Shown here: positions 17,136 through 35,030 of the stretch, in pieces
Layout: each line of letters begins with the position of its first letter
Numbering within the stretch: the stretch's first letter is position 1
Source: an uncultured Planctomycetota bacterium
Lineage (GTDB): Bacteria; Planctomycetota; Planctomycetia; Isosphaerales; Isosphaeraceae
DNA: 64,000 bases
NCBI GenBank assembly: GCA_963845755.1
Contig: CAWJTV010000005.1
Coordinates: 416,001-480,000, forward strand
Direction: 5' to 3'
Notes under the pieces: generated by a model
Told to the model about the DNA's origin: nothing
The model's database searches: none
What the model saw: the letters and a program-made list of their open reading frames with translations, nothing else
Made by a program: the position numbers and the translations under genes

Positions 17136-17723
17136 TCGCACGGCTGATCCTGTTCAGCTCGGCCCCTACAGGTGTTGACGATGGGCTAGGGCGGAGGCCG
17201 TCCATCCGACGTGGTAATCCAGAACTCCGGAGGAGAAATCCAGGAAGTGGCTCGCCCTTGTCCGGCTCATCGAAAGCGGGCGGACGAGATTTCACTGCCC
17301 CGCCATCCAGGACAGTCCGAGGAAACGTCTTTCACACAGGTCCTGACCCAACATTCGTGTACCGAGCGGCAAAGCAGCGAGCCCAAAGCTGTGCAGGTCA
17401 GACACCGTCACGGGCGGCACAGCCGCTGCGTTTGAACGCGGTTGAAACATAATCAAACGCATTATCGGACTCGCCGATGTCTGCCCAATACCCAACGCCA
17501 TGAGTGATCCGGCAGTCTCCTCCTCAGCCTGGCGTTCCACCGGACTTGCCCAAGGGCGATGGGATGACCGCTATCCCGATCCTGGCTGGTGTCTGCGCAA
17601 GCGACACTCCGCCGAGTCCTCCTGCTTAATTCCTCCGAAATTCAAGTTATAAATCAATGTGGATGGCATTAACCCTGCCAGGCCACACATCGCGATCCTT
17701 TTCTCACCATCGGAGGAATCATT

Positions 17724-18092
17724 TTGTCTCACATCGTGACCGTCAAGACCGAGGTCCGCGACCATGCCGCGGTCGCGGCGGCCTGCCGCCGGCTCGCACT
17801 GCCCGGGCCGGTCCAGGGCACCGCCCATCTTTACAGCGTCCATGTCGGCGGGCTGCTCGTCCACCTGCCCGACTGGCTCTACCCGGTCGTGATCGACACG
17901 GCCACGGGCAGCATCCGCTATGACAACTATGAAGGCTGCTGGGGCGACAAGAAGCATCTCCATCACTTTCTGCAAGCCTACGTCGTCGAGAGGTCTCTCA
18001 TCGAGGCCCGCAAGAAGAGCTACGTGACCACCGAGCAGTCCCTGGCCGACGGTTCCATCATGGTCGAGATCAAGGTGGGAGGCTCGGCATGA
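17724..18092 (+). CDS. DUF1257 (Ycf35-like) protein
   Basis: MSHIVTVKTEVRD, LPDWLYPVV, YDNYEGCWG, FLQAY, EQSLADGSI; GGAGG plus TTG start. Confidence 0.78.
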   Translation: MSHIVTVKTEVRDHAAVAAACRRLALPGPVQGTAHLYSVHVGGLLVHLPDWLYPVVIDTATGSIRYDNYEGCWGDKKHLHHFLQAYVVERSLIEARKKSYVTTEQSLADGSIMVEIKVGGSA

Positions 18093-18283
18093 AGAAGATC
18101 ATCCGCGTGATCGTCGGCCCCAAGGGCGAGACGAGAGTTGAGACGAAGGGCTTCACGGGTGGTGAGTGCCGCGAGGCCAGCCGGTTCATCGAACAGGCCC
18201 TGGGTCAGCCGGTCAATGAGCAGCTCACGGCCGAGTTCTACCAGTCACAGGCCACCGACCAGCAGATCCAGCAGTCGCAGTGA
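18089..18283 (+). CDS. DUF2997 protein
   Basis: IVGPKGETRVETKGFTGGEC...IEQALG...LTAEFY; ATGA overlap with the DUF1257 gene. Confidence 0.82.
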   Translation: MKKIIRVIVGPKGETRVETKGFTGGECREASRFIEQALGQPVNEQLTAEFYQSQATDQQIQQSQ

Positions 18284-18322
18284 TCTCGGCATCCCCCATG
18301 GTCTCGTTCGAGGAGATGCGCG

Positions 18323-18715
18323 ATGTTCGACACCTGCGAACAGACCCCCGAGTTTGCGCTGATCGAGGCCATTGCCGCGGCCCTGCGTGAGGAGTTGGGC
18401 ATTGAGATCGAGGACCAGCCCGGCTTCCACGATCCCTCCGAGGCCGGCGAGGTCAACAGGGCATTCCGGGTCATGGTCAAGACCATCCTCCGGAAATGCC
18501 TCCCACCGGGCGAGGATCTGCCGGTGTTCCCGAGCCGGGTCCTCGGGCGCCTCGCACGGCGACGGCTTGAAGCAGGTCTGCTCGACGCCCGCGAGGTCGA
18601 GCACCTGATCGGCCTGGAACTGGATGGCCGCGATGACTGGCTCGCCTCTCTGATCCTGACCGACTGGACTGAAATCGAGCATCTCCTGCAAACCCGCGGG
18701 CCCGACCATGATTGA
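18323..18715 (+). CDS. Hypothetical protein, 130 aa
   Basis: GAGGAG ribosome-binding site, protein-like composition, fills the gap in the operon. Confidence 0.6.
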   Translation: MFDTCEQTPEFALIEAIAAALREELGIEIEDQPGFHDPSEAGEVNRAFRVMVKTILRKCLPPGEDLPVFPSRVLGRLARRRLEAGLLDAREVEHLIGLELDGRDDWLASLILTDWTEIEHLLQTRGPDHD

Positions 18716-18775
18716 TCCGGCCCCCTGACTGACCTCTTCCCCAACCCGATCCGACACCATCACGAGGAGGACCTC

Positions 18776-20268
18776 ATGACGCTTGCCGAGCGTTTGGCTG
18801 AGTTCGTGCGCACCGCCTTCACCGGCCTGTGGATCCAGTCGTTCGAGCACGACGACGCGATCGCCGAGATCGCCCGGCTCTGCCGCCAGCAACGCTGGGC
18901 GTTGGCGACCTGGGACATCGATCGCGGCCTTTCCATGGCCGGTCGGTCCGAGGATTCCGCCAGCGTCATCAATGCCACCGATCCGCTGGCCGCCATCCGC
19001 TCGCTGGGGGCGATGGCCAATCCCGACGGCACGTCGTTGCTCGTCCTTCGGAACTTCAACCGGTTCCTCAACAACATCGAGGTCGTCCAGGCCCTCGACT
19101 CGGCGATCTCCGCCGGCAAGACCGGGCGGACGTTCGTCGTCGTCCTCTCGCCCGTGGTCAACATCCCCGTCGAGCTAGAGCGGCAGTTCGTCGTGATCGA
19201 GCACGACCTGCCCGGCTGCGACCAGCTCGAGCGGATTGCCAGTGGCATCGCCACCGATCCCGGCGAGCTGCCCGAGGGCGATGCACTCACGGCCGTGCTG
19301 GATGCAGCGGCGGGCCTGACCCGCGTCGAGGCCGAGAATGCGCTCAGTCTGTCCCTGGTTCGGCATAACCGGATCACGCCGGATGTGCTCTGGGAGCTCA
19401 AGGGCCAGACGCTCAAGAAGAGCGGACTGCTGGCCTTGCATCGGGGCGGCGAAACCTTCGCCGACCTGAGCGGGCTGCAGGCCCTCAAGTCGTTCTGCAC
19501 TCGCCGCCCTGCGGCCGGGCCGACGCGCCGACGTCCAGGCTCGGGGCGTGCTCCTCCTGGGCCCTCCAGGGTCCGGCAAATCGGCCTGTGCCAAGGCTCT
19601 TGGCAACGAAACCGGCCGTCCCACCCTCTTGATGGACGTCGGCACGCTCATGGGTTCCTTGATCGGCCAGACCGAGGAACGGACGCGACAGGCCCTGAAG
19701 ATTGCCGACGCGATGGCGCCGTGCGTCATCATGATCGACGAGCTGGACAAGGCGCTCTCCGGCGTCGGCAGCACCGGCGACAGCGGCGTGTCCACCCGGA
19801 TGTTCGGGACGCTCCTGACCTACCTGAGCGACCACGACTCCGACGTCTTCATCGTCGCCTCGGCCAATGATATCTCGAAGCTGCCGCCCGAGTTCGCGCG
19901 CCGAGCGGTTCGACGGCGTCTTCTTCCTGGACCTGCCGGGCCAGAGCGAGCGGCAGACGATCTGGCAGATGTACATTCGCAAGTTCGGGCTCGATCCCGG
20001 CCAGCGCCTTCCCCAGGATCGCGAGTGGACCGGCGCGGAGATCCGATCGTGCTGTCGCCTGGCGGCCCAGCTGGACGTCCCATTGACCGAGGCCGCCTCG
20101 AACATCGTCCCGGTTGCGGTGACGGCCGGCGAGGCCGTGGAGAAGCTCCGGCAGTGGGCCAGCGGGCGGTGCCTGTCGGCCGAGCGGCCGGGGATCTACG
20201 CGCGCGAGGGCAACGGGATTCCCCAATCGGGGCGCAGCGTTCATCGCGGCGATCCCCGCGATAACTGA
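18776..20268 (+). CDS. Ycf46-like AAA+ ATPase; frameshifts near 19505 and 19900
   Basis: N-terminal IPVELE region, Walker A GPPGSGKS, Walker B IMIDELDK, ANDISKLPPEF, ERFDGVFFLDLP, WTGAEI, LRQWASGRCLSA. Confidence 0.87.
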
Positions 20269-20407
20269 AGGGGAACGCCGGACGGGCGGATCGGTTCTGG
20301 GCACTGCCATGTGTCGTGCCTGGGATCGGTCGCTACGCGGCCACTCTGGAAGATGAAGCACTCGATCACCATCCCCTACCCACCACCGAACCACCGGAGA
20401 ACCTCGC

Positions 20408-20674
20408 TTGAGTATCCCCTACCGGATCGCCCTGGAGATCCCGGGTGAACCCCGGGAGGCCCCGACCACCGTCACGAGCTTCGAACAGGGCGTGGCGGCC
20501 TGCGTTGCTTATGCCCGTCAGCATCCGGGCGTCCCGGTGCGCATGTTCGTGCAGGTCGATGAGACGACCCTGTTCGATCATCATTACGCCGTGTTCGAGG
20601 TCAAGGTGCCGACGCTGGAGCCGTTCACGCGGGCCGGGATCCGGCGCCGGTTCGGCGAGGAGCCGCCGGTCTGA
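20408..20674 (+). CDS. Hypothetical protein, 88 aa
   Basis: GGAGA ribosome-binding site with TTG start; protein-like composition. Confidence 0.55.
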   Translation: MSIPYRIALEIPGEPREAPTTVTSFEQGVAACVAYARQHPGVPVRMFVQVDETTLFDHHYAVFEVKVPTLEPFTRAGIRRRFGEEPPV

Positions 20675-20752
20675 GCCGGGATGCCGGTCCCCGTGGTCCG
20701 GCGGGAGAATTCCACTCCCGACCCGGACCGGCTCGACTTTCAGGAAACCCTC

Positions 20753-21229
20753 ATGAGAAACCCATCCGAGCTGTCGCGTGCGGAGCTCGAATCGATCGCC
20801 GAGCAGATCCGGGACATCCTCTGGCGCGACCACCGCACCAACGAGCTTGATCCGGACAAGGAATGGAACATCGAGACGATCGAGTACGTCTCGGGCGTGC
20901 TCGAGGATGCCGGGCTCAAGCCTGGGGCCCCGGCGGTACTCCAGGCCGATTCCGGACCTGTTGCGGCCGATGCTTCCGCCGAATCGACCAGTCATGAGCC
21001 GGCCCGTGATGATCACGAGACATCGCCGGTGGCCGCGATGCGGTCTGCCCTGGACGCCATCATCGACACGATCGAGGCCAGTGGTGGCGGCATCCGCGGC
21101 GAGGACGGACTGCTGTCGCCGGAGGGTGATCCCGACTGGATCGACCTGGGCGAAGCCTACGTCCTGGCCTGCACCGCGATCGGCCGAACTCCCCTGATCA
21201 TCGAGACAGGGGAGAGCGAACAAGCCTGA
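20753..21229 (+). CDS. Acidic hypothetical protein
   Basis: AGGA site before MRNPSELSRAELE; two compact segments joined by a low-complexity linker. Confidence 0.6.
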   Translation: MRNPSELSRAELESIAEQIRDILWRDHRTNELDPDKEWNIETIEYVSGVLEDAGLKPGAPAVLQADSGPVAADASAESTSHEPARDDHETSPVAAMRSALDAIIDTIEASGGGIRGEDGLLSPEGDPDWIDLGEAYVLACTAIGRTPLIIETGESEQA

Positions 21230-21294
21230 TGTCTTGCGGCGTGCGGAAGGAAGCGTTTCGGCATTCGAATCACCGACTCTCTTGAAGGAGAACC

Positions 21295-21735
21295 ATGCTC
21301 GTCATCCATCCCGAGAGCCACGTCAACCACGTCTCGGCGTGCCTCATCGAGGCCGCGACGTTGAGGTTCGCTGAGGTGACCAACCCCGACCGGCGGATCA
21401 TCATCGAGACCTTCGAACTGCCGGAAGAGGCAGGGACGGTCGCGTGTGCCTTGTACGGCCCGGCCCTGGGCGATCCGTCGCTGTGCGAGGACGAGGTCCA
21501 GTACCGGGTCCGCCCCGGACGCTCCTGGCCCAGCCGGACGGTGGCTCGCCCGGTCCGCCAGACCCGGACCCTGACCGTAATCGCCGGACCGAACAGCGGC
21601 GAGGACCTGGTCCTGTTCACCTGCCATGGCGGGCCGGCGGCCCCGCCGGAAGTCAATGATCCCAACCTCGAGCCGGCCGATCGGGCGGCGTCGCTCGCGT
21701 TCTGGAACGACCACGCCCTGGCCCTGGAGGCATGA
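21295..21735 (+). CDS. Hypothetical protein, 146 aa
   Basis: AAGGAG ribosome-binding site; ATGA overlap with the next gene. Confidence 0.68.
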   Translation: MLVIHPESHVNHVSACLIEAATLRFAEVTNPDRRIIIETFELPEEAGTVACALYGPALGDPSLCEDEVQYRVRPGRSWPSRTVARPVRQTRTLTVIAGPNSGEDLVLFTCHGGPAAPPEVNDPNLEPADRAASLAFWNDHALALEA

Positions 21736-22314
21736 TCGCGATGAAGACCGCGGCGGAACTCTGCGAGGGCTTGCTCTCCTGCGCCGGGCAACACGGCGAC
21801 GCCGAGGGCAGCGAGGTGCAGCTCGGCGATATCGAGGACTTCTTCCGCGCCGCGTTCGATCGGCTCACACCGGAGCAACTCGGCCGGTTCTGGGACGATC
21901 CTCGAGTCGCCGGGACCGTCCGGGAGATCCCGGAATACGAGGAACTGGCAGGAGAGGTCTATTACCGTGACCGGCCATCGGAGCCGACGGTCCGGGAGGC
22001 CAGCGATTTCCTGCCCCACACCAGGCCCGAGGCCGATCGGTCCACCGATCCAGTCGCGGATGATCAGAGGATCCCCGTGACCTTCACTCACGTCGAACAG
22101 GATGGCGACAAGACCTACCGGGCCGGCGGCCTCTATCTGAGCCTGGGAGGCGGCCCGGGCATCGGCCACGTGGCCATGCGCAGTCGATCCCGGCGGCCGG
22201 AAATGGGCGACCACTTACTATGCAGCCGCGGGCTGGCTCGTCGCCCAGGGCCTGCCGCACGACCGCGCCGCCTACCTGGTCGCCTGCGCGATCCAGACGC
22301 GCGACCAAACCTGA
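21732..22314 (+). CDS. Hypothetical protein; probable frameshift near 22158
   Basis: GGAGG site; protein-like sequence continues in another frame (ASATWPCAVDPGGRKWATTYY...RDQT stop). Confidence 0.5.
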
Positions 22315-22338
22315 CCCTCGCCACGAAAGGGAAACCTG

Positions 22339-22583
22339 ATGGCCAGACGCCCGCAACTCCGCTGCTCGCGCTGCGGGGAGCGGGAGGACTTCTTCGTCCG
22401 GATCAGCTCGCTGGTCACGCTGATCCGCGACGCCAATTCGGCCGATGGCCTCTCGATCGACATCTCCGAGAAGACGCCGCCGATTTCGACTGGATCGCGC
22501 TCCATTGCGGGCGATGCGGCCACGAAGGGCCGCAGGAGGAGTTCGAGATCAGGCCAGTCGCGAGAGTGGCCACAGGGTCTTGA
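22339..22583 (+). CDS. Small Zn-ribbon protein; frameshift near 22470; 3' end uncertain (may extend to 22723)
   Basis: CSRCG in the first frame and CGRCG in a second frame together give a four-Cys ribbon. Confidence 0.5.
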
Positions 22584-22718
22584 GACGATCGCGACGCGGG
22601 TCCAGGAAATCATCGGCCCTGAGTCGTCCTGGCCACGGCGGGGCGCGCGATCTCGTGCGGGGATTCACCGGTGTTTCCCACGGCACCGAGGCGCCGGCCC
22701 CGGCCCTGGCCGAAGTTG

Positions 22719-22730
22719 ATTAACGTTAAT
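22719..22730. promoter_or_regulatory. Perfect 12-bp palindrome ATTAACGTTAAT (TAACGTTA copy 2)
   Basis: AT-rich palindrome overlapping the ATG of a possible ORF at 22729. Confidence 0.4.
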
Positions 22731-23014
22731 GGATCTCGAGGACCGGAGACACCTCGCCGCGAGGATCGCCTCGATGCTGCCCGAGCAATGGCGTGCACGG
22801 GTCCACCCGGTGTCGTCAGACTCACTCTTCCGGGGCCGTTCCCGCGACCAGAGAAAGTTCCAGGACGATCGCATCGCTGTGGCCATCCGACCCGACGCAC
22901 CGGCCTGGACCGAGGACAACCGCGGCGACGTCCTTGGGACGTCGTGCGCTCGGCGCATCCGAGACGGTCGCCCTTCGCTCCGTTCTGAAATGCATTCGAG
23001 AGAGGAGGTGAGAC

Positions 23015-23227
23015 TTGGCCGCTGTCTGGCTCAAGGTGCGGATCGACGTCGTCTTGGTCGGGCCGGAACGCGAAGTATCGGGGCCGGAAGCGACGGCGGC
23101 GGCCCGGGAGGCGGTCTGCAATGCCCTCCAGGCCGCCCAGGAAGCGGGCTTCGATCACGATCGGGCCGATGATCTTTCCCTGACGGTCAACTACGTCGAG
23201 GTAGCCGACTTCGATGCGACGGTCTGA
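23015..23227 (+). CDS. Hypothetical protein, 70 aa
   Basis: Strong GAGGAGG site with TTG start. Confidence 0.6.
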   Translation: MAAVWLKVRIDVVLVGPEREVSGPEATAAAREAVCNALQAAQEAGFDHDRADDLSLTVNYVEVADFDATV

Positions 23228-23270
23228 TTGCCCGATCCCGATTTACCCCGAGTCGAACAGGAGGCCGAAG

Positions 23271-23693
23271 TTGACCGATTGGTATTCGCTGTCCGGCCGC
23301 GTCCTGCTCCGCCAGTGTCCCGAGGCCGGCGCGATCGTCGCGCAGCTCCGGGACCTCTGCCAGGACGGGCTCGGCATCATCACGAAGGAGTTGAGCAGCA
23401 ATCAGATGGAATTGACCGTCCAGGGCCACGCCGAGCTGGCCGAGGCCACCGTGCGGGAGATCGAGCGGCTGCTCGAATCGCTCGGCCCCTTCGCGCTGGA
23501 CGCGGAGGTCTTCGAGAAGCAGTTCAATCACCTCCCGCGCGCGGTGGTCGTGGTCCGGCCGGGCGATGACGGGCGGGTCCTGCTGAGCGGTTATCGGATG
23601 GGGCAGATCCAGGATCTGATCGCGGACCTGGTCCCGGATCACCGCGCCTGGCTCATCGACCTGCTCCGGGAGCCGAAAGACCAGAGGGCCTGA
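23271..23693 (+). CDS. Hypothetical protein, paralog A (similar to 24282-24782)
   Basis: AGGAGG plus TTG start; aligns without gaps to the 24282 protein. Confidence 0.7.
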   Translation: MTDWYSLSGRVLLRQCPEAGAIVAQLRDLCQDGLGIITKELSSNQMELTVQGHAELAEATVREIERLLESLGPFALDAEVFEKQFNHLPRAVVVVRPGDDGRVLLSGYRMGQIQDLIADLVPDHRAWLIDLLREPKDQRA

Positions 23694-23796
23694 GCACCCG
23701 CCGTGGGCCGGCCGGCACCGCACGCCTCGCCTGCCGATGGCGTGCTGGCTTGCCGGCCGCTCCTGGCAGGACCGGCTCACGAGTCGGAGAACCCCC

Positions 23797-24285
23797 ATGA
23801 TCGACGTGCCTTACGTGCTGGTGGGAAAGCAGATCCCCCGTCACGCGGTCCCCGAGGGTCGTGAAGTCCATCCGGCTCCGTGCATCTTCTGCGGCGCGCC
23901 GATCGAGCACGTGGATGACGGCGGGATCGGCCGGCTGCTCGGTGCACGGGTCGACGGCGAATCGTGGGTTTACCTGTACTGCAATTCGGGTCCGTGCGCC
24001 CAGAGATCGGCGCCGTGGATCTGGCGGTGCGGGTGCGTCCCGGATTACGCCGAGAACGTCCGCGGTCATTGCTACCAGTGCCGGAAACCCCGGCATGAGG
24101 CGGAGCCGTACGATCGGGTCGAGTGCCCCGTCTGCGGCGAGGCGCACCGCCTCGACGACCGCCTGGGGATCGGCAACGGGAGGTGCCGGTCGTGCACCGC
24201 CGGGCCGGCCTACCTGCCGGTCCTTCACGAGACTCCCGAGTGGACGCCGTTGCGGGCGCTGCGGGGCGGTGTCCATGGCGAATGA
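23797..24285 (+). CDS. Cys-rich, multi-Zn-finger hypothetical protein
   Basis: CIFCG, CNSGPC, CGC, CYQC, CPVCG and CRSC motifs; GGAGA site. Confidence 0.62.
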   Translation: MIDVPYVLVGKQIPRHAVPEGREVHPAPCIFCGAPIEHVDDGGIGRLLGARVDGESWVYLYCNSGPCAQRSAPWIWRCGCVPDYAENVRGHCYQCRKPRHEAEPYDRVECPVCGEAHRLDDRLGIGNGRCRSCTAGPAYLPVLHETPEWTPLRALRGGVHGE

Positions 24286-24782
24286 GATCGAGCGAGCGTG
24301 GTCCGGTCCTGGAGGACCAGGCCGGGCTGTCGGAGGAATCCCGCCAATTCCGCGAAGGTGAGAAATCGAGCGCATTCTACGAGGTCTACGGCACGATCCG
24401 CGTTCGAACCGGCGCGAAAGCGAAAGCGATCGTCGCCCGGCTCAGGGACTTTCCCCAGTACGGCATCGAGATCGACAGCGACGAGTGCGAGCCGGGTGTC
24501 GTGTCCATCTCGCTCGAGGGCGGGAGTTCCTTTGCGGCCGGTGAAGTCCTCGACTTCGACAAGCTGCTCCAGTCGCTCGGCTCCCATGTCGTGGAGCCGG
24601 CGGTCCTGGACACCGAGTACGAAGGCGAAGACGGGGAGCTGGTCGTCGCCCGCTCCGACGCCGAGTCGGCAGAGACGCTCAGCCGGCATCGATTGGAGCA
24701 GATCGACATCCTGCTGCGCGATGTCACGCCGGAGGATCGGACGAAGCTGGCCGATAAGCTCCGATCTCTCCCGGCTCAGTAA
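24282..24782 (+). CDS. Hypothetical protein, paralog B (similar to 23271-23693)
   Basis: ATGA overlap with the upstream gene; shares AIVAxLRD, LLxSLG and LSxxRxxQI with paralog A. Confidence 0.7.
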   Translation: MRSSERGPVLEDQAGLSEESRQFREGEKSSAFYEVYGTIRVRTGAKAKAIVARLRDFPQYGIEIDSDECEPGVVSISLEGGSSFAAGEVLDFDKLLQSLGSHVVEPAVLDTEYEGEDGELVVARSDAESAETLSRHRLEQIDILLRDVTPEDRTKLADKLRSLPAQ

Positions 24783-25000
24783 ACCATCCCTGTTGACCAT
24801 GATCCCTCGGGCTTGAGTAACGATTGCTCATGGTTCCGGGGCGGATTCCTGCGGTCCGTTCCACGTAGTCCATCCGACCAGACCCCTGATCGGCCCATCC
24901 ATTCGGCAGGGCCGGTCGAGGTCCGCATTCATCCCGCTTACGAACGGTTCTATCACGGACCGTTCCCGGCGGGGGCGGTCCCAGCATCAAGGAGACCGCC

Positions 25001-25615
25001 ATGTCCATCGCATCATTGAACGACGCCCGGCGCGAGTTCACGGCCCACCTCCCGGCCGTCGAGAACGCCACCCGCTTCGCCTTCCGGCGCCGGCGGCTGA
25101 GGCGCCAGGATTACGAGGACGTCCTGGCCGAGGCCGTCGCCGCCTGCTGGAGCGCCTGGGTCGGACTGATCTCCCGCGGCCGGGACCCGCTGTAGGTCGG
25201 CGTCTCCGGCATCGCCAACTACGCCATCCGCTACGTCCGGAACGGCCGCCGGATCGCCAACCGGTCAGGCGGCCGGGGGGCCATGGACGTCTATCACAAG
25301 AAGGCCCAGAAGGTTCTTGGTTTCCGGGTCATCAACTCCGGCGGCGACGAGACTGTCAACGAGGAGGACGCGGGGATTTGGACCAACTGCTGCACCCCGG
25401 CAGACGAGGCGTGCTTTCGCGTCAACTACGCGGCGTGGCTCGAGGCCCTGGCCCCGCGACGACGGACGACGGCCGAGCTGCTGGCGGCGGGGCACGGGAC
25501 GCTCGAGGTGGCGCAGCAAGTGGGCGTGACCCCGGCCGCGATCAGCCAGGCGCGGTCCTGGTTACACCAGAACTGGCGACGGTTCCAGGGCGACGGGCCG
25601 GCGGCGTGCGGGTGA
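25001..25615 (+). pseudogene. Divergent sigma-70/ECF-like protein with an in-frame TAG at 25193-25195
   Basis: AAGGAG site; region-2-like DYEDVLAEAVAACW; the frame continues past the TAG to a region-4-like HTH (GHGTLEVAQQVGVTPAAISQAR). Confidence 0.62.
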
Positions 25616-25744
25616 AGAGTTGCTGGGTTCTCGCAGCAGTCCGCATCCCTGTTCGTACCCTTGTCTCAGCACTCGCGAGCGGCCGGACCCTGGTCGCCCG
25701 GAAAGCGTGATTCGTTGTCTTGATCCCGTTCCCTCGGAGGTGAA

Positions 25745-26734
25745 ATGCCCACCTTGCTTGACCACCTTGATACCGATCCCGTTTCGAGCCACGGCGTCGC
25801 CGTCACGACCAGTGCGGCCCAGCGGCTGCGCACGACCATGGCCGCCTGCCGCGTCTCGTTTACCTGGTGGGGCGTCCAACGCACGCTGACGTCCGAGCAG
25901 AAGGCCCAGGCCGCGCAGGCGTTCGACGCCGAGGGCGAGTTCCTCTCCGCCGGCAAGAAGTTGCTCGACACGAAACACACGGCGTTCCGAGCCGTGACGG
26001 CCATCCGCATCAGGATCGGCGATTACTGGAAGGGCCTCTCGCTCCCATTCCCGGAGTCCGGAGTCCGACTCATCAAACTGGAAAGCGTGGAGGAGTTCGA
26101 CCGCCAGATGGCCGACTATCGCGCCGAACTGGACGACGCGGTCGCCAATCTCGATCGCCATTTCGAGGAGCTGAAGCAGGCGGCGGCCCGCCGGTTGGGC
26201 TCGCTCTACAATCCGTCGGATTACCCGGAGACGCTGATCGGCCTCTTCGGCGTCTCCTACGACTTCCCCTCGATCGAGCCGCCGGATTACCTGGTCCAGC
26301 TCTCGCCCGGGCTCTACGAACGCGAGCAGGAGCGGGTCCGGGCCCGGTTCGAAGAGGCGGTTCGGCTGGCCGAGCAGGCGTTCGTCAACGAGTTCGCCCG
26401 CCTGGTCAACCATCTCACGGAGCGAATCTCGGGCACCAACGAAGACGGGACGCCGAAGGTGTTTCGCGACACCGTCGTGGGCAATCTCGACGACTTCTTC
26501 GAGCGTTTTCGCTCGTTGAACGTCCGGTCCAATCAGCAGCTCGACGACCTGGTGGCCCAGGCCCAGCGGGCCGTACGAAATGTCGGCGCGCAGGACCTGC
26601 GCGACAGCGAGGCAATCCGGAGCCAGGTGGCCACCCAGCTCTCTCGGGTTCAGTCGTCGCTCGACGCCATGCTGGTTGACCGGCCGCGGCGGCGGATCCT
26701 CCGCAACACGCCGAACTCGGAGTCTGAATCGTGA
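25745..26734 (+). CDS. Helical hypothetical protein, tentatively DUF3150-like
   Basis: GGAGG site; LSAGKKLLD, SLPFPESGVRL, LGSLYNPSDYP, KVFRD; family call from recalled motif pattern only. Confidence 0.65.
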   Translation: MPTLLDHLDTDPVSSHGVAVTTSAAQRLRTTMAACRVSFTWWGVQRTLTSEQKAQAAQAFDAEGEFLSAGKKLLDTKHTAFRAVTAIRIRIGDYWKGLSLPFPESGVRLIKLESVEEFDRQMADYRAELDDAVANLDRHFEELKQAAARRLGSLYNPSDYPETLIGLFGVSYDFPSIEPPDYLVQLSPGLYEREQERVRARFEEAVRLAEQAFVNEFARLVNHLTERISGTNEDGTPKVFRDTVVGNLDDFFERFRSLNVRSNQQLDDLVAQAQRAVRNVGAQDLRDSEAIRSQVATQLSRVQSSLDAMLVDRPRRRILRNTPNSESES

Positions 26735-26976
26735 AACTGCTCGTCAAACCCGACGGGACGGTCCTGGCGATCTACGACGAGATGATCGATCTCAGCGTGC
26801 TGGGCCGTCCTACGATCACCCGGGCCAGCCAGGTCGAGCCCGACGAGCAGGGGCGCTGGCGGGCCGACCTGACGCCGGTGGGTGGACCCGTGCTCGGTCC
26901 ATTCGATCGCCGCAGCCAGGCCCTGGACGCCGAGCACGACTGGCTGGAACGCAACTGGCTGAACGGCTCCGTCTGA
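26731..26976 (+). CDS. Small hypothetical protein, 81 aa
   Basis: GTGA overlap; IYDEMIDL, RASQVEPD, GPVLGPF, ALDAE pattern recalled from planctomycete island proteins. Confidence 0.72.
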   Translation: MKLLVKPDGTVLAIYDEMIDLSVLGRPTITRASQVEPDEQGRWRADLTPVGGPVLGPFDRRSQALDAEHDWLERNWLNGSV

Positions 26977-27006
26977 AACCCTGCTCTTCTTCGTTCGACC
27001 TTCCCG

Positions 27007-27031
27007 CGGCCGGCATCCGGCCGTCTTTTCC
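27007..27031 (+). terminator. Possible intrinsic terminator
   Basis: CGGCCGG-CAT-CCGGCCG stem followed by TCTTTTCC, 30 bp after a stop codon. Confidence 0.4.
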
Positions 27032-27156
27032 TTCACTACCCTCGACATCACCCCGCGCCCGGACCCGCAGTGCTCCTCATCCCGGCGCACCCTGGCCGCG
27101 AGGTGGGTGCGCCGCCGAGATGCGGGGCACCAGGCCGGCTCGGGAGGAGTAACACC

Positions 27157-27471
27157 ATGACCCGGACCCAGCTTAATTGTTCGATCGCCGCGCGTACCGG
27201 CGAACCGCTTTCCGTCATCCGCCGCCTCGGATTTCGCCTCCTGGTCGAGCCGAGTGAGGAGCCCGTCGCCGAGGAGATCCGCCTGGTCGTCCACTGCCCG
27301 TTCTGCAGCGGCCAGGTGCCGTATCCCGGCCAATCCCGCGACGGCTCGAACGCCCTGGCCGAGTGCCACGGCTGCGATGTCTATTTCGAGTTCGAGGACC
27401 GCGACGTCTTCCCGGCCAGCTCGCGGGCGGCCGTGACCTCGCTGTCTCGTCGCCGTTACATCCCCGCCTGA
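27157..27471 (+). CDS. Small Zn-ribbon hypothetical protein
   Basis: GGAGGAG site; N-terminal ARTGEPLSVIRRLGF; CPFC and CHGC. Confidence 0.68.
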   Translation: MTRTQLNCSIAARTGEPLSVIRRLGFRLLVEPSEEPVAEEIRLVVHCPFCSGQVPYPGQSRDGSNALAECHGCDVYFEFEDRDVFPASSRAAVTSLSRRRYIPA

Positions 27472-27547
27472 CCGCCAACGCATCCGCTCCTTGGCCGTAG
27501 CCCGAATCGTTCACTGGCCCGATTCACCGAAACAGGAGTCTTCCTGA

Positions 27548-29026
27548 ATGATCACCTTGACCCGAAACCAGGTCCGGCGGCTCCGTGTCGCCTTCCGCCG
27601 GGCGGCCCTGGGCATCACCCATCGGGGGACCGTCTCCGAGCTTGTGCTCCGCGCCGAAGGGAGTCAACTACGGGCGCAATATCGGTACTGCGACCTGGCA
27701 ATCGAGCACGTCGAGCCGGGTAGCTACCGGCCGGCCATGAGCCTCGCCATCCCGCTCGATGCCCTGGCCGACTTCGAGGGCTCAGCCGACTCGCCCGTCG
27801 TCCTCGAGTCGGTCGGCCCCGATCGGACCGTCGTCCGCTGGGAAGATCGGGGCATTCCCCAGAGCCGCGAGTACAACCTCGTGACGCCCGTCGATCGCGT
27901 GGAGCCGATGCCGGCGTCACCCGCGACCTGGGCATCGAATCCGGCCGACTTGCTGGACGCCCTGGCGGTGGCGACCGAGATCGGCCTCCCCGACTCGCCG
28001 CGCTACTCCTTGGAGTGTATCCAGCTTCAGGGGAACCACGGCAAGCTCCTGGCCACGGACGGCCGGCAGGGCCTGGTTCGCTCGGGCTATACGTTCCCCT
28101 GGTCTGACAACCTCCTGATCAAGGGTCGCCCAATCTTCGGCTGCCGGGCGATCCCTCACGATCAGCCGGTCGAGGTCGGAAAGACCGACACCCATGTCGT
28201 GATCCGCGCCGGGGCCTGGACGATCTACTCCGAGATCCAGAAGGAAGCGCGGTTCCCCGACCTGCAGCGGGTGATTCCCACCGACGGTGAGGTCTCGACC
28301 CGGCTGCGGCTGGACCCGGCGGACGCGCGGTTCCTCGAATCCGCCCTGGACCGCCTGCCCGGCGGCGACGAACTGAACAGCCCGGTAACCCTGGAATTGA
28401 ACGGCCGGATTGCCGTCCGGGCCAGCGCTGCCGACCAGACCGAGCAGGTGATGGAGCTGATCCTCAGCCGGTCGAGTTATTCCGGCTCGCCGCTCTGTAT
28501 CGCGACGAATCGCGTCTTGCTCGATCGGGCTCTCCGGTTGGGCTTCACGGAAGTCGGCTTCGCGGGAGTCGATTCGCCGTTCGTCTGCCGCGCTGAAGGG
28601 AAGATGTTCACGGTCCAACCCCTGAGCGGCGGGTCGCCGCTCGACGGGAACGCGCACGTGACGCGGATCGAGTCGAGCGCGGCGACCGGCGCCGCGAGTC
28701 GTGTCCCAACCCGCAACGAGAGCACGAGGAGACCGATGTCGGAATCCGCCGGGAGAAATGGCCACGCGACACGGGCCGCCGAAACCCATGGCCACATGGC
28801 GGCGACACGGGCCGAGACGACGAGTCCCTCCGGCGCCGAGCCGCCCGGCACCAACCTGGCCGCCCTGATCCAGGAGGCCGAGTCCCTGCACGCTGCACTG
28901 GCCGACGCGAAATCCCGAACGAGCCACCTGATCGCCGGCCTGCGGCGCCAGCGCAACCAGTCTCGGCTGGTCAGCGAAACCCTCAGATCGCTCCGCGAGC
29001 TGAAGCTCCAGGATGTCGTCGCCTGA
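27548..29026 (+). CDS. Divergent DNA sliding-clamp (DnaN-like) protein with a C-terminal coiled coil
   Basis: [18 protein letters not shown] and [12 protein letters not shown] follow the order of beta-clamp motifs; low-complexity linker and heptad-like tail; AGGAG site. Confidence 0.65.
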
Positions 29027-29069
29027 CCAGACATCTCGAGACACCAGGCCGGCGTGCCACGGGCTCGAT

Positions 29070-29077
29070 TAACGTTA
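29070..29077. promoter_or_regulatory. TAACGTTA palindrome, copy 3
   Basis: GATTAACGTTAGG, intergenic, about 50 bp upstream of the 29128 start. Confidence 0.4.
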
Positions 29078-29127
29078 GGCCGAATCGCCGGCCCGGTCCC
29101 ATCCCTGTCATGAAGGAGGCCCACACC

Positions 29128-29610
29128 GTGTCCTTGAAGTTGAACGTCGGGGTCTCGCGCAAGGTCGGCCAGCCGGATTACGGCTCGGTCGGCGCCTCGT
29201 GCCACCTCGAGCTGGAGATCGACACCGGCCTGCTGGATCGCGACCTGGATGCCTTCCATGCCCGGGTCCGTTGCGCATACGTCGCCGCCCATCAGGCCGT
29301 CCACGACGAACTGGCCCGCTTGAACTCGCCGGTTGCGGCGCCGCAAAACGCGCCGGCTTCACCGCCCCGCCAGACGACCCATGGCCACGCCAACGGCAAC
29401 GGTCGCACCGACCCTCCGCCGGCCGGGCGATCCCGAACTCGCAAGCCGGCGACCGAGAACCAAATCCGGGCGATTCGCTCCATCGCGACCCGGCAGCATG
29501 CCGACCTTGAGGGCTTGCTGCAGGAGTTCGGAGTCGATCGGCCGGAGGATCTGAGCCTGCCCCAGGCCAGCCGGCTGATCGACACCCTCAAGGCGGCAAG
29601 CCAGATCTGA
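29128..29610 (+). CDS. Hypothetical protein with two small domains
   Basis: AAGGAGG plus GTG start; [24 protein letters not shown]-terminal domain; ATENQIRAI...[15 protein letters not shown]-terminal domain. Confidence 0.72.
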
Positions 29611-29672
29611 GCAGCCGTCGGTAAGCGTCGAGGACAACCCGGAATGACCATCCATCGAATGGAGGACCTGAC

Positions 29673-30267
29673 ATGGGCTTGACGGTCGCCGAGAAGACCC
29701 ACTGGCGAGACCGGATCGAGGCCAAGATCAACCGTCGGATCGAGGGGATCCTGACTGGCGATCCCGGCCTGCTGGACCGGATCAAGCTCTCGGCTCGAGG
29801 GCGCACCCTGGCCTCGCTGGGACTGGCCGAGTTCCAATCGGAACTGGACCAGATCGCCGCCCAGAAGGAGGTGCTCGCCCGGCGCGAGCGGCGTGCCCAG
29901 CGCGCCATGCTCGCTCGGGTGCGCGGCGTCGAGATCGACCAGATCGAAGAAGTCTATTACGGCCGACACGAGACCGAGGTCACCAGGGCGGTTTCCCAGC
30001 GGCAGGCGGTTCACGAGGACGAGTTGCTGGCCGAACACGAGGTCGGCCGCCGGATTCTCCAGCTCCGCGCCGAGAAGGATCGTTTGCTCGACACGGTCTG
30101 GCTGGCCTGTTCTCCGGCCCAGATCCGCCAGCTCTGGAGCAAGGTCGGCGAGTTGCTCGGCGACGAGCCGACCCAGCTCGAGCGCGAGGCGCTGGGTCGG
30201 CGACGAGCCGACCCAGCTCGAGCGCGAGGCGCTGGCGATCCCGCCGGCCGGCGAGGAGGGCGGATGA
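29673..30267 (+). CDS. Helical hypothetical protein; 3' end frameshifted by a 40-bp tandem duplication
   Basis: GGAGG site; removing one repeat unit gives GDEPTQLEREALAIPPAGEEGG stop, overlapping the next ATG. Confidence 0.7.
30157..30235 (+). repeat. Tandem duplication with a 40-bp period
   Basis: TCGGCGACGAGCCGACCCAGCTCGAGCGCGAGGCGCTGG occurs at 30157-30195 and again at 30197-30235. Confidence 0.95.
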
Positions 30268-30593
30268 GCCGACCCTATCCGAATCGTCGTCGGAAGCGTC
30301 CGGGCCGGCGTCCGCCGCATCGCTATCGTGGTGGCAAGCCGCCGGTCCGGCCGAACAGCTTCATGGACTTCGGCCTGAGACAAGTCTACGACCTGATATT
30401 CCCGACCATTCGCGGACGAGATCGGAAGACGTTTTTCAATCAGGCCAGTACGGGGTCTGTCGTGGCCATGGGATTCATAGCCGCGTTCATGGGGTACGAG
30501 GGAGCCGGTCTCCCCGGTGCGATCCTCGGCGGCGTCGCGGCGATGGCGCTGTCGGACCACGCGCTCCGCAAGCATCGTTTCTACCGTCCCTGA
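30264..30593 (+). CDS. Small membrane protein with a very basic N terminus
   Basis: GAGGAGG site and ATGA overlap; Arg/Pro-rich N terminus; Gly/Ala-rich hydrophobic hairpin. Confidence 0.6.
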   Translation: MSRPYPNRRRKRPGRRPPHRYRGGKPPVRPNSFMDFGLRQVYDLIFPTIRGRDRKTFFNQASTGSVVAMGFIAAFMGYEGAGLPGAILGGVAAMALSDHALRKHRFYRP

Positions 30594-30615
30594 GGCGACT
30601 CCCATCAACCAGACT

Positions 30616-30658
30616 GGCTGGCCACGGCTACGGCCGTGGCCAGCCTGCTCTCTTTCTT
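30616..30658 (+). terminator. Strong hairpin, probable terminator of the island transcript
   Basis: Perfect 13-bp stem GGCTGGCCACGGC/GCCGTGGCCAGCC with a TACG loop and a pyrimidine-rich tail, just after the last island gene. Confidence 0.7.
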
Positions 30659-30975: not shown

Positions 30976-32149
30976 ATGAGAGCACTCTGCTGGCACGGCA
31001 AGTCGGACGTCCGCGTCGATACCGTCCCCGATCCCAAGATCGAGGACCCGCGCGACGTCATCGTGAAGATCACCTCCACCGCGATTTGCGGCTCCGATCT
31101 CCATCTATATGACGGCTACATGCCGACGATGGAGCCCGGGGATGTCCTCGGGCATGAACCGATGGGAGAGGTGGTCGAGGTCGGCTCCGCGATCACAGAA
31201 TTCCGGAACGGCGATCGGATCGTCGTCCCGTTCACGATCTCCTGCGGGGCCTGCTGGTTCTACGAGAATCAACTTTTCTCGTTGTGCGATAACTCGAACC
31301 CCAACGACGAGATGGCCCGCAAGGTGATGGGCCAGTCCCCCGCCGGCCTGCTCGGCTATTCGCACTTGCTCGGCGGATTCGCCGGAGGCCAGGCGGAGTA
31401 CCTCCGCGTCCCGTACGCCGACGTGGGTCCGATCAAGATCCCCGACGGCATTCCCGACGAGAAGGTCCTGTTCCTTTCCGATATCTTCCCGACCGGATAC
31501 ATGGGGGCCGAGAACGCCGGCATCGAAAAAGGTGATACCGTGGCCGTCTGGGGCTGCGGGCCGGTAGGCCAGTTCGCCATCCTCGAGCGCCTGGATGCTC
31601 GGGGCCGGGCGGGTCGTTGCCATCGACCGCGTCACGGAACGACTGGCGATGGCCGAGAAATATGGCAAGGTCGAGACGATCCACTTCGACAAGGAGAAGG
31701 TCTACGACCGACTGATGGAAATGACCAAGGGCCGCGGCCCCGATCGCTGCATCGACGCCGTCGGTGCCGAGGCCCACGGCACCGGTTCATGGGATGCCAT
31801 GCTCGACAAGGCGAAGACCTCGGTCGGGCTGGCCACCGACCGCGCGCACGTGCTCCGCGAAGCGATCCTGTGCTGCCGGAAGGGTGGGACCATCTCCATC
31901 CCCGGCGTTTACATCGGCTTTCCCGACAAGCTCCCGATGGGGGCCGCGATGAACAAGGGGCTGGCTTTCAAGATGGGCCAGACCCACGTTCCCAAGTATC
32001 ACCAGTTGCTGCTCAAGAAGATCGAGGCCGGTGAAATCGACCCGTCCTTCGTCATCACGCATCGCATCCCGCTCAAGGATGGACCGGCGGCCTACCGCAC
32101 ATTCCGCGACAAGAAGGACGATTGTATCAAGGTTGTTCTCAAGCCTTGA
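30976..32149 (+). CDS. Zn-dependent alcohol/formaldehyde dehydrogenase family protein; frameshift near 31583
   Basis: [35 protein letters not shown], then [19 protein letters not shown] in the next frame. Confidence 0.9.
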
Positions 32150-32306
32150 TTCATCCGGGACCTGGCACGCGAGTTGCTAAAGAATCGGGCGTTGTGAACG
32201 CACCGACAGATGCCGTGTTGAATTTCGACGAATTTATCTCGGCGATGCGTGCATCGCCGGCCAGCGAGCCAAGACCCCGTCCCCTCTTTCCGACGAGGTA
32301 TGAGTG

Positions 32307-32909
32307 ATGGCGCCAATCCGTTCGATCGACGAGTTAACGCGCTGCAATGTGGCAATTATCGCGGAAATGGAGAGAGCGGCTGCCCACGTTCGGTCCCGAG
32401 GCGATCGCATCGCCGATCTCATCGCGGCGTGGGTCGGTAGTTGGGCCTTCATCATCACCCAGACAGTGATCCTGATTATATGGATCGCCTTGAATCTTAT
32501 CGCGTTAGTCAATCATTGGGACCCCTATCCATTCATCCTCTTGAATCTTGCTCTCTCGTTTCAGTCGGCCTATGCCGCGCCGATCCTCATGATCAGCCAG
32601 AACCGTCAGGCGAAGCTCAGTGAGCGTCGCAATCATCTCGACTTGCAGATCAACATGCTGGCGGAGCAGGAGACTACGGAAATCCTTCGTCTCCTGCGGC
32701 TCCTCTGCGAGCACACCGGTGTCCGCCTCGACAAGGACCACAACGGTCGGGCCTTCGAGGAAGAGACGAAGCCTGCCGAGATCGTGCGGCAGATCCAGGG
32801 GGAGCTGGAAGCACGAGCCATCGATGTCCTGGAGGAAGTCGTCGAGGCTGGCGTCGAAACGTCCCCGCTCGTTCCTCACAAGTTCGACCGCCGTATCCAT
32901 CCAAATTAG
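32307..32909 (+). CDS. DUF1003 membrane protein
   Basis: RIADLIAAWVGSW, DPYPFILLNL, AAPILMISQNRQ, DLQIN. Confidence 0.88.
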   Translation: MAPIRSIDELTRCNVAIIAEMERAAAHVRSRGDRIADLIAAWVGSWAFIITQTVILIIWIALNLIALVNHWDPYPFILLNLALSFQSAYAAPILMISQNRQAKLSERRNHLDLQINMLAEQETTEILRLLRLLCEHTGVRLDKDHNGRAFEEETKPAEIVRQIQGELEARAIDVLEEVVEAGVETSPLVPHKFDRRIHPN

Positions 32910-32982
32910 AGGAAAGGCTCATCCCTCGGTGCCGGGGCCGAGGAAGGCGACCGTCGAAGATGGGGCGGGGGAGGGAACCTTG

Positions 32983-33622
32983 GTGGCTTCTCATAATGAA
33001 AATCTGCATGGCAACGCTCCGGACAAGGCCAATGCCGCCTTGCTCCTGATCGATGTGATCAACGACCTGGAATTCCCCGAGGGTGAGCAGTTGCTGCGGC
33101 ACGCCCTGCCGATGGCCGAACGCCTCGTGGCGCTGAAACGCCGGGCGAAGGCGGCGGCCATCCCGGTGGTCTACGTCAATGACAACTTCGGACGATGGCG
33201 GTCGAACTTCACCAGCCAGGTCGAGCACTGCTTGAACGATGGTGTGCGAGGCCGGCCGCTGGTGGAGTTGCTCCTCCCCGATCCCGTCGATTACTTCGTG
33301 CTGAAGCCCAAACATTCCGGCTTCTTCTCCACGACCCTCGATCTCTGGCTCGAATACCTGGGCATCAAGACGGTGATCCTCAACGGGGATCGCGGGGAAT
33401 CACTGCGTGCCCTTCACGGCGAACGACGCCTACATGCGCGACTTCTCCCTGATCGTACCGCGCGACTGCGTGGCGTCCAACACCGAGGAGGACAACGGCA
33501 ACGCCCTGGAGCAGATGCGGAAAGTCCTCAAGGCGGACATTCGCCCGTCGACCGAATTGGTTCTCACTCCGGCCGACGGGGGACCGGGGAGGCCCAACCC
33601 CATGCGGAAGCGATCGAAGTGA
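32983..33622 (+). CDS. Isochorismatase-family cysteine hydrolase; frameshift near 33383
   Basis: LLLIDVIND, VYVNDNFG, LKPKHSGF, then GIAGNHCV and TANDAYMRD; Asp-Lys-Cys triad present. Confidence 0.87.
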
Positions 33623-34123
33623 AGTGCCATCCCGCATGGCTCGGTCCGCTCGACCCGCCTTGCTTCTTTTCCTGCCTCTCCCGGAGTTCCGGGGCCAGGA
33701 GCTTCGGTTCGATGCCGGAAGCGCCGTGATAGACGACGTCACCGCCTTCGTAGCTGGCAAACACGAGCACCCCGGCGGCGATCAGGCCCGTGATGCGCGC
33801 CCAGGCCGGCGGCGGTGAGGGCTGAAGGCGCCGGCGCACCACGGCGATGACTGTAAAAAGGAGGAACTCGACCACCGCCGCGCCGATGGCCACCAGATGA
33901 CCTGGCCGGCCTCCTCGGTGTGCGAGGCCGGCCCGATGTAGAAGGCGAGGACCCCGGCGGCGGCCAGCACCCCGGTCGCAGCGCCAGCCAGGAGCAGCCC
34001 TGTCGCACCCCGCGCCGGGGCCGGGTCGTTGCGACGCCAGGCGGAGAGTTCGAGCAGCACGGCGCCCGCAAGGGAGGCGATCGGGAAATGAGTCAGTGCC
34101 GGATGGAATTCCCCAGGTTCCAT
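33564..34123 (-). CDS. DUF2231-type membrane protein; frameshift near 33893; 3' end uncertain
   Basis: HPALTHFPIA N-terminal motif, four hydrophobic segments, YEGGDVVYHG. Confidence 0.72.
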
Positions 34124-34137
34124 GGTCGCATCTCTTC

Positions 34138-34756: not shown

Positions 34757-35030
34757 CGGTTGATCCTCGTCGTCCGCGGGGACTTGTTGAAGATGAGAGA
34801 TCTCGGAGGCTTGTGTGCGGCCTGCGGCGCCAGAGCACAGGCGGACGCCGCCTCGATCGGCTCGCCAGTTTGCGGGAAGAACGCCGGGGGTAAGTCGGGC
34901 TCGACAGTCTGCCCGGCGTACTGCTTGACCTCGGCCTCCGCGCCGAAGTCGGCCGAGACCGGGTTAACGCTTCTCTCCCGTTCTTCCTCAAATTGCTGGA
35001 CCAATTCGTTTTCTTCTCGAACCTGTCCTT
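34753..35030 (-). CDS. Short ORF or remnant resembling the C terminus of YqcI/YcgG-family proteins; 5' end undefined
   Basis: QFEEER...NPVSADFGAEAEVKQYAGQTVE; stop codon overlaps the DUF1989 start (ATGA). Confidence 0.4.

Follow-up and report, generated by a model that had tools for sequence, protein, structure and literature searches.

An AAA+ ATPase operon as the probable backbone of a family of mobile islands in Planctomycetota

Organization, copies, and distribution of the operon

The operon considered here occupies about 13 kb of a 64,000-nt stretch (the window, to which positions refer) of contig C5 in the genome of an uncultured Planctomycetota bacterium of the family Isosphaeraceae (GenBank GCA_963845755.1); this genome is designated G000, C-numbers denote its contigs, and other G-numbers denote other genomes. 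A codon-based caller places 21 open reading frames (ORFs) within 17724..30593, all on the + strand, which correspond to about 20 genes when the pieces of the ATPase gene and of the sigma-like gene, both split, are joined and a fused ORF is counted as two (table 1). Five of these genes form a core that encodes a DUF1257 protein, a DUF2997 protein, an AAA+ ATPase, a DUF3150-fold protein, and an 81-aa protein. The original prediction described about 20 co-oriented genes, several of them translationally coupled, that are closed by a 13-bp hairpin and include no integrase, relaxase, type IV secretion, terminase, or capsid gene. The ORF calls, the hairpin at 30616–30645, and four ATGA/GTGA overlaps bear this out, and a Pfam search of 33 ORFs (window 15.7–36.5 kb) matched DUF2997 and AAA models and no integrase, relaxase, type IV secretion system, terminase, or capsid.

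The block matches six further loci of the genome (on C2, C6, C7, C8, C25, and C47) at 76–94% DNA identity, and the seven loci sit in differing contexts with flanks that differ at every copy. Of these copies, that on C6 is almost complete; the front of the operon is on C2 and C47, the back on C7 and C8, and a remnant on C25. The ATPase gene is intact in C6 and C47. Given that the contig ends overlap (C2/C8 over 8 kb at 98.7% and C2/C7 at 97.8%), it is likely that these are two sibling elements in which inserted cargo separates the sigma-like gene from the DUF3150 gene, and the contig sequences thus suggest that the seven loci likely represent about five elements. The left edge at 17623 is common to all four fronts and the hairpin is common to the backs; on the right, similarity among copies stops at 30665–30913. 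Pairwise ratios of nonsynonymous to synonymous substitution rates (dN/dS) between copies are 0.00–0.43 for the five core genes and the sliding clamp gene, which are under purifying selection, and two near-identical accessory gene pairs have ratios of 0.58 and 0.66. In the C7 copy, the DUF3150 gene is interrupted by an insertion sequence (IS; G000:C7:63220–65163) to which a two-gene IS at 5525–7128 of the window is 99.7% identical.

Of 301 genomes of the class, 106 carry the DUF3150 gene (among the 287 high-quality ones, 97), with at most seven matches in each, and the other 195 have no match. It occurs in 11 of 40 relatives, is patchily distributed within genera, and was not found in the same-genus genome G001, which is 87% complete; the nearest named records are metagenome-assembled genomes of Isosphaeraceae and Planctomycetota. 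This marker is thus carried by about a third of the genomes sampled from the class, in which it is often multi-copy and next to defense, SOS-polymerase, or adhesin-like cargo, and the single-copy, syntenic inheritance that would speak against a mobile element was not seen. Our DUF3150 tree is a quick one (53 rows, with long-branch warnings, rooted for drawing only); it places three rows of this genome together, whereas copies of G125, G026, and G032 do not group by genome. An alternative that we regard as highly improbable is that the block is a stress or housekeeping operon of the host, comparable to the ycf46 operon of cyanobacteria, that has been duplicated in this large genome. Such operons do exist, since ycf46 lies in a chromosomal operon regulated by stress and ppGpp (PMC13683863) and duf2997 and ycf35 neighbor fed7 (PMC4284462), but the 195 genomes without a match, the scattered positions of same-genome copies in the tree, and the differing flanks at every copy argue otherwise.

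The multiple copies, patchy distribution, varied flanks, and purifying selection sustain the original prediction that the 13-kb operon is the conserved backbone of a mobile island family, which we consider very probable; the prediction does not hold in tying the whole to planctomycetes, given that the five-gene AAA+ core is also found on phages and plasmids. The island family and its AAA+ module are real, abundant, and apparently undescribed, and their general kind, an integrative cargo island with an establishment-type operon, is known. We found no description of the module or the island family in open-access full text, the literature that was searched.

Just inside the left edge, at 17625–17651, lies a bipartite motif, CT(T/A)AA-N16-GT(C/T)ATA, that has five matches in the genome against 0.34 expected, four of them at copies of the operon; with spacers of 14, 15, 17, or 18 in place of N16, the genome has 1, 0, 0, and 0 matches. 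The motif is found with at most one mismatch 5′ of the DUF1257 gene in 14 of 86 loci, and we read it as a putative promoter; a sigma-70 promoter scan gave no match on the + strand. Its sole copy away from the operon lies 5′ of an unrelated ORF (G000:C40:91965). The hairpin has 13 pairs, 11 of them G-C, followed by a T-rich tail, and terminator-like matches over the whole region number 5 against 6.4 expected, that is, they are not in excess. Between the ATPase and sigma-like genes, the operon holds a variable insert of small genes that is missing in the C2 and C47 copies and partly present in C6. The 140-aa and 166-aa proteins of this insert are paralogs, the product of the gene at 21295 matches phrog_23674 (E 8e-6), and no protein of the insert has a Pfam match above the cut-off.

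The window copy carries two frameshifts in the ATPase gene (near 19510–19545 and 19895), an in-frame TAG in the sigma-like gene (25193–25195), and a frame-broken region at 21732–23000. A 40-bp tandem duplication near 30157–30235, present in this one of five copies, accounts for the 306-aa last ORF, in which the 184-aa and 109-aa genes are fused; they are separate ORFs in C6, C7, C8, and C25. We considered the frameshifts as evidence of decay and rejected this, because near-identical IS copies in the assembly show 0.73 indels per kb (49 events in 66.7 kb) and 2.1 substitutions per kb relative to one another, so that the two ATPase indels in 1.5 kb are compatible with assembly error. The broken ATPase and sigma-like genes are possibly such errors, from which decay is not distinguishable. 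The only DNA sequencing run found shared 0.11 of words and held fragments of relatives rather than of this genome, and no RNA sequencing run is listed for these sequences.

Table 1. Features of the operon and its surroundings in window coordinates
Feature	Position	Strand	Basis
Left operon edge, sharp, common to copies	17623..17672	+	Similarity among 4/4 front copies begins here
DUF1257 (Ycf35-like) protein, 122 aa, N-terminal MSH motif; core gene 1	17724..18092	+	Relatives match PF06868
DUF2997 protein, 64 aa, invariant Cys27; core gene 2	18089..18283	+	Pfam, E 1e-16; alignment
Helical accessory protein, 130 aa, close relatives only	18323..18715	+	7 profile matches in 214 loci; dN/dS about 0.2
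Classical-clade AAA+ ATPase by sequence, about 497 aa when intact, R-x-V tail; core gene 3	18776..20268	+	Three-frame translation
Variable insert of small genes: 88, 182, 146, frame-broken 283, 70, 140, Zn-ribbon 162, and 166 aa	20408..24782	+	
Sigma-70/ECF-like protein, 204 aa in intact copies; optional	25001..25615	+	Below-cut-off TIGR02937 match
DUF3150-fold protein, 329 aa; core gene 4	25745..26734	+	Model and Foldseek
81-aa protein, RAS(H/Q)VEP motif, overlaps DUF3150 stop; core gene 5	26731..26976	+	96-sequence alignment
104-aa protein, C-terminal Zn ribbon; planctomycete operon form	27157..27471	+	11/12 long metagenome loci, 1/47 viral loci
Divergent three-domain beta sliding clamp (predicted), 492 aa, disordered linker, long C-terminal helix	27548..29026	+	Model, Foldseek, profile
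Two-domain protein, 166 aa, function not assigned	29110..29610	+	DUF3072, E 9e-5, below cut-off
184-aa helical protein and 109-aa protein (hydrophobic C-terminal half, from 30264)	29673..30593	+	Five-copy alignment
Terminator-like hairpin, 13 bp, near right backbone edge	30616..30645	+	Matched at 4 genome loci
Likely cargo: dehydrogenase, DUF1003, isochorismatase, then repeat proteins and giant ORFs	30976..64000	.	Apparent element membership

Protein identities and the five-gene core

The assignment of the first core protein to DUF1257 stands through its relatives, 39 of 52 of which match PF06868 when aligned, whereas the window's own protein does not; its MSH motif is known from Ycf35 (PMC13060386). 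A ubiquitin-like GG end on this protein was considered and rejected, as it is not conserved in viral members, and homology among the three small core proteins (DUF1257, DUF2997, and the 81-aa protein) was likewise rejected (hhalign 0.6–16%). In the 81-aa protein, R31, E36, W43, R61, and E68 are invariant in 96 sequences.

The intact C6 ATPase has its best PDB sequence matches in NVL, VAT, and Cdc48 (E 1e-43 to 1e-40), and the Walker A and B and R..RFD motifs are conserved in 61 sequences; by the sequence of the intact copies, the ATPase belongs to the Cdc48/VAT class of classical-clade AAA+ proteins. The nearest solved sequences are thus those of Cdc48, p97, and VAT, with which the operon ATPase shares the Walker motifs and the arginine-finger region, but unlike them it has one recognizable P-loop domain, its N-terminal half being without an intact Walker A in the 61 sequences. 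Its pore-loop region reads GSL(I/V)G, and its partners are unrelated to Cdc48 adaptors by the searches run. The original prediction called the ATPase Ycf46-like, a provisional label.

Fold prediction for the 329-aa protein (pLDDT 92) yields an alpha/beta domain and a helical bundle, with a conserved RPRRxIL tail. The model matches that of a viral protein named DUF3150 (Foldseek E 6e-16, TM 0.79), and PF11348 is matched by 6 of 116 relatives, which upholds the suggestion of a DUF3150-like gene, the window protein itself being without a direct Pfam match. Against the PDB this fold has no Foldseek match under E 0.001, the best VIA Z being 9.4, on a generic helical bundle. The suggested clamp-like gene is supported by models and profiles, while the link to replication that the original prediction gave it stays conjectural: the model of the 492-aa protein (pLDDT 85) matches DnaN (Foldseek E 3.5e-22, TM 0.78, 18% identity), its profile matches the PDB over positions 29–339 (E 1e-7), and the predicted structure is a full three-domain beta-clamp fold with an added C-terminal helix. 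The 166-aa protein encoded at 29110 has no PDB match below E 0.01. We are more cautious about the predicted sigma factor of the operon. Its resemblance to TIGR02937 stands, with matches spanning most of the model in four of five copies, but all five copies score below the cut-off (E 3e-5 to 0.02; 14–24 bits against 42.9) and the gene is optional, with 11 matches in 214 loci; its C-terminal helix–turn–helix resembles that of FixJ (E 0.006).

A viral scan confirmed 421 stretches encoding a DUF3150 relative, of which 80 were kept and 47 have at least 5 kb on both sides, and a metagenome scan confirmed 433 loci, of which 80 were kept and 12 were long enough. The ATPase is encoded in 38 of the 47 viral loci, DUF2997 in 36, the 81-aa protein in 35, and DUF1257 in 34, with the clamp and 166-aa genes in none, whereas the 12 long metagenome loci include 10 with the clamp, 11 with the 104-aa gene, and 6 with a PD-(D/E)XK nuclease. 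The nuclease gene follows the 166-aa gene in many relatives and is missing from the window copy. The clamp was detected in no form of the operon other than the planctomycete one. A Manganitrophus plasmid carries the five core genes together, and on Paraburkholderia and Rhodovastum plasmids a DUF3150 relative adjoins a VWA gene. The five-gene core is therefore not planctomycete-specific, and in place of the two small partners first predicted for the ATPase, four dedicated partners are likely.

These distributions bear on two alternatives. The islands could be decayed prophages and the operon a leftover, passive phage early region, a reading that gains from the nesting of the planctomycete DUF3150 proteins, as one clade (98), among viral ones in the quick tree, from the 421 viral stretches, and from one copy each in G032 and G184 that faces head-tail genes 19–32 kb away. 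We nevertheless consider it unlikely, as the low dN/dS, attachment (att) repeats, and conserved promoter-like motif point to maintained elements, none of the 47 viral loci has the clamp or the 166-aa gene, and G000 and G125, with seven copies, have no match to capsid PF25209 or terminase PF05876, the two families searched. Alternatively, the operon could be a replication module in which the ATPase loads the clamp of the element, with the island replicating as a circle. The full clamp fold, weak PHROG matches (E 3e-5) between the ATPase core and clamp loaders, and a leftward region of cluster O mycobacteriophages that encodes both a beta clamp and a related ATPase (PMC4351075) fit this proposal; we find it rather improbable given that the ATPase is nearest NVL, VAT, and Cdc48 and not loaders, that the core occurs without a detectable clamp in all 47 viral loci, and that primase, helicase, and polymerase are not fixed parts, primase- or helicase-like genes being present in some elements only.

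The viral loci also suggest a relation between the motor and DUF3150. In 44 viral loci with distinct tails, DUF3150 is paired with this ATPase in 36, with MoxR/VWA in 8, and with both in none, and its tail is of the R-x-(V/I) type in 35 of the 36 loci with this motor and in 0 of the 8 with MoxR/VWA, a split that overstates independence since the tails had been viewed before the pattern was defined and the loci share ancestry. A similar tail is carried by the ATPase in 55 of 61 sequences, against a background of 0.11. DUF1257 and DUF2997 are fused as one ORF in two viral loci (L095 and L097, with both profiles matched). Among cultured phages, Rhizobium phage L338C encodes the ATPase, DUF1257, DUF2997, and the 81-aa protein as gp50–54 (L257:6539–10379), annotated as an AAA+ ATPase and hypothetical proteins, and a non-DUF3150 neighbor of these genes ends in a similar tail. 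A tblastn search of DUF3150 against 50,697 annotated phage records gave no match.

Integrases, attachment repeats, and cargo

The original prediction of an element without an integrase is not borne out once the surroundings of the 13 kb are considered, as integrases lie tens of kb away from the operon or just upstream of it (C5, C7, C25, G026, G009, and G284). On the window contig, the gene at which the operon points, 63 kb downstream and outside the window, encodes a tyrosine integrase (C5:509378–510893; PF00589, E 4e-21) and adjoins the IS-cut 3′ part of a tRNA-Leu gene. This region is 84% DNA-identical to the integrase and whole tRNA-Leu at which the C25 remnant points, and we infer that the window copy is linked to its integrase across the 63 kb, with 30976..64000 as cargo; no whole tRNA was recovered across the IS at C5:510.9 kb. 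C5 510.8–539.0 kb holds three tandem tRNA-Leu-like ends, two with adjacent integrases, an island accretion site. In G001 and six other relatives checked for an empty site, the flanks were not collinear.

The C7 operon points at an integrase beside tRNA-Arg. The 3′ 44 bases of this tRNA occur exactly twice in the genome, on C7 and 14 kb upstream of the C47 front, beyond which lie host-like genes; the repeat brackets the C47 front half and the C7 back half, which are on two contigs and appear to join into one element. In G125, a 19-bp tRNA-Ser repeat surrounds about 50 kb with a copy of the operon, the integrase there being upstream. The operon–integrase–tRNA layout recurs in G026 and G009, large serine recombinases lie just upstream of the operon in G284, and G184 also has a serine recombinase. 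In five complete genomes with 20 listed copies, and counting PF00589 matches including those below the cut-off, 13 copies have a tyrosine integrase no more than 100 kb away, against 5.2 expected, or 12 without two IS-type genes. These arrangements suggest that the islands likely integrate via tyrosine or serine recombinases.

Several observations weigh against the island reading. The co-location of copies and integrases is a co-location in accessory regions only, and 7 of the 20 copies have no Pfam integrase within 100 kb. No left att of the window copy was found, in that no repeat of at least 13 bases from the C5 integrase end occurs upstream on C5, and four of six tRNA-bearing loci of relatives have no convincing att repeat in the 21–59 kb examined. 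The window copy itself is broken as assembled.

With respect to conjugation, the VirB4-type ATPase PF19044, expected of an integrative and conjugative element, was matched in none of the five genomes (control profiles matched 7/14), and the coupling protein PF10412 was represented by two fragments of 43–48 aa only, distant from any copy. No relaxase was found among the ORFs sent to Pfam, no genome-wide search for a relaxase or oriT having been made. If the island reading is true, these elements would be a principal channel for gene flow in planctomycetes, whose five checked genomes yielded no match to a conjugation ATPase.

Cargo upstream of the operon in relatives includes type I restriction–modification (RM) genes, PglW, DrmD, and HmaA, which raises the alternative that the operon is itself an anti-phage defense or abortive-infection system within defense islands. 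It does abut RM, BREX, DISARM, and Hma genes, and IetA models give a weak match to the ATPase core (E 5e-18). This is the only match to PADLOC 2023 among 16 backbone proteins, no other backbone protein of the copies in this genome matching at 1e-5, and it covers the P-loop core only, far under the NCBIfam cut-off; moreover, the core is present on large and cultured phages, and the defense genes swap while the operon stays fixed, as expected of cargo, so that we judge a defense system to be quite improbable. The nuclease of a relative matches DruK/Cas4 models of PADLOC 2023.

Other cargo is varied. The tRNA-Arg element contains thymidylate-synthase-like, aGPT-Pplase3/ADDT, and MazG-like genes (L003:9697–13146; C47 259–263 kb), likely a DNA-modification cluster, and the C7 and C8 elements have DUF72 and ImpB/MucB (Y-family polymerase) genes in common (L007:10056–12870 and L009:7202–8047). 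In several G125 copies and one G032 copy, genes for a ThiS-like small protein and a ThiF enzyme replace the clamp block, and the G032 version adds a JAB-like gene (L234:1763–4329; L038:15560–18477). A complete operon faces a prophage head-tail region in L041 and in G184:C1:4.80–4.84 Mb, with a large serine recombinase between the two in G184.

Known systems and a possible function

One of the nearest analogs is the IncC/SXT host-defense-evasion (hde) operon, which is likewise a mobile-element operon that joins an AAA+ ATPase, DUF3150, and DNA-processing genes; the gene order in IncC pVCR94 is AAA, hypothetical, ssb, bet, exo, DUF3150, VWA, and by this order vcrx094 would be the DUF3150 gene. 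Genes vcrx089–093 show anti-restriction as well as anti-CRISPR roles and vcrx094 is co-transcribed with them (PMC7498323), a result extended for anti-restriction in PMC11602122. The hde motor is of the CbbQ/MoxR type with VWA, whereas the planctomycete motor is of the Cdc48 class with DUF1257, DUF2997, and the 81-aa protein. The hde CbbQ/MoxR AAA protein, Vcrx090, ssb, bet, and exo do not match the operon profiles, the operon having a clamp instead, and IncC and SXT conjugate, whereas the search of five planctomycete genomes yielded no conjugation ATPase.

In their likely mode of integration, the islands resemble tycheposons, or tRNA-targeting islands (10.1101/2020.12.28.424599), which are described as integrating at tRNAs with partial-tRNA att repeats and a terminal tyrosine integrase, and as carrying exchangeable defense or adaptive cargo and no conjugation genes. 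The tycheposon hallmark given there is a primase–helicase module, whereas that of the planctomycete islands is the AAA+/DUF3150/clamp operon, and serine recombinases are also used. Cyanobacteria and plastids have Ycf46, Ycf35, and DUF2997, and an MSH-start DUF1257 gene adjoins DUF2997 there too; the operon ATPase matches AAA proteins of cyanobacterial plasmids over 94–97% of its length at 33–34% identity. The passages available to us describe the cyanobacterial and plastid genes as chromosomal or plastid and stress-regulated, with no mention of DUF3150, the 81-aa protein, or a clamp. Cluster O mycobacteriophages and L338C are cultured phages with a related ATPase, and the former also have the beta clamp noted above. 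Unlike the islands, these are virion-forming phages, and Corndog is reported to lack an integrase (PMC4351075). No sequence-level DUF3150 match was found in cluster O or L338C, and a phage Dylan protein gave a weak fold match (E 3e-3).

Cdc48-class hexamers thread proteins that adaptors deliver, and MoxR uses VWA as an adaptor. By analogy with Cdc48 and VAT, the operon ATPase may form a hexamer that threads proteins, for which DUF1257, DUF2997, and the 81-aa protein would be the adaptors through which it takes hold of the tail-tagged DUF3150 protein and remodels it; the ATPase and DUF3150 might both dock on a common adaptor by their short R-x-(V/I) tails. As DUF3150 occurs with either motor, it is most simply read as the client and the three small proteins as the adaptor; DUF3150 could be either client or effector, and we lean slightly toward a client. 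Together with the clamp, the 166-aa protein, and often the PD-(D/E)XK nuclease, this machine would protect or process the DNA of the element after excision or entry, in the manner of the hde operon. We posit, with about as much doubt as conviction, that the operon is an establishment module of integrating planctomycete islands whose ATPase acts with adaptors on DUF3150. The establishment or counter-defense role taken alone is favored by the analogy with the IncC hde operon, and we advance it tentatively, as somewhat less than an even prospect.

Several points count against this proposal. The five genes with a phenotype are vcrx089–093, with vcrx094 not among them (PMC7498323); the DUF3150 profile does not significantly match the IncC protein (E 5; hhalign 0.4%), so that the link to IncC is transitive and runs by way of the Pfam name; in L338C, four core genes occur with no DUF3150 match; and the functions assigned to these proteins draw on sequence, models, and analogy. 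A wider reading, about which we are more doubtful still, is that one machine is spread across phages, plasmids, and islands, with DUF3150 as the fixed client and a swappable motor, either MoxR with VWA or the Cdc48-class ATPase with a DUF1257/DUF2997/81-aa adaptor that would read the R-x-V tail on motor and client; the clamp would then be an addition made in a very common planctomycete island family, and the plastid ycf46 and ycf35 a domesticated motor–adaptor pair. The motor swap and the tail offer direct tests for the long-orphaned families DUF1257/Ycf35, DUF2997, and DUF3150, for which L338C, a cultured phage with four of the five core genes, is a ready test system.

Outside the operon, a hydrophobic permease-like gene lies to the left (15670–17135), apparently frame-split into two pieces without a Pfam match, and an IS at 3146–4668 has several near-identical copies in the genome and is 83–84% identical in G001. 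To the right, the block of dehydrogenase, DUF1003, and isochorismatase genes (30976–33729) has a 77–83% identical counterpart on C9. Elsewhere in the genome, C41 carries over 30 same-strand tRNA genes in an array (590–597 kb).

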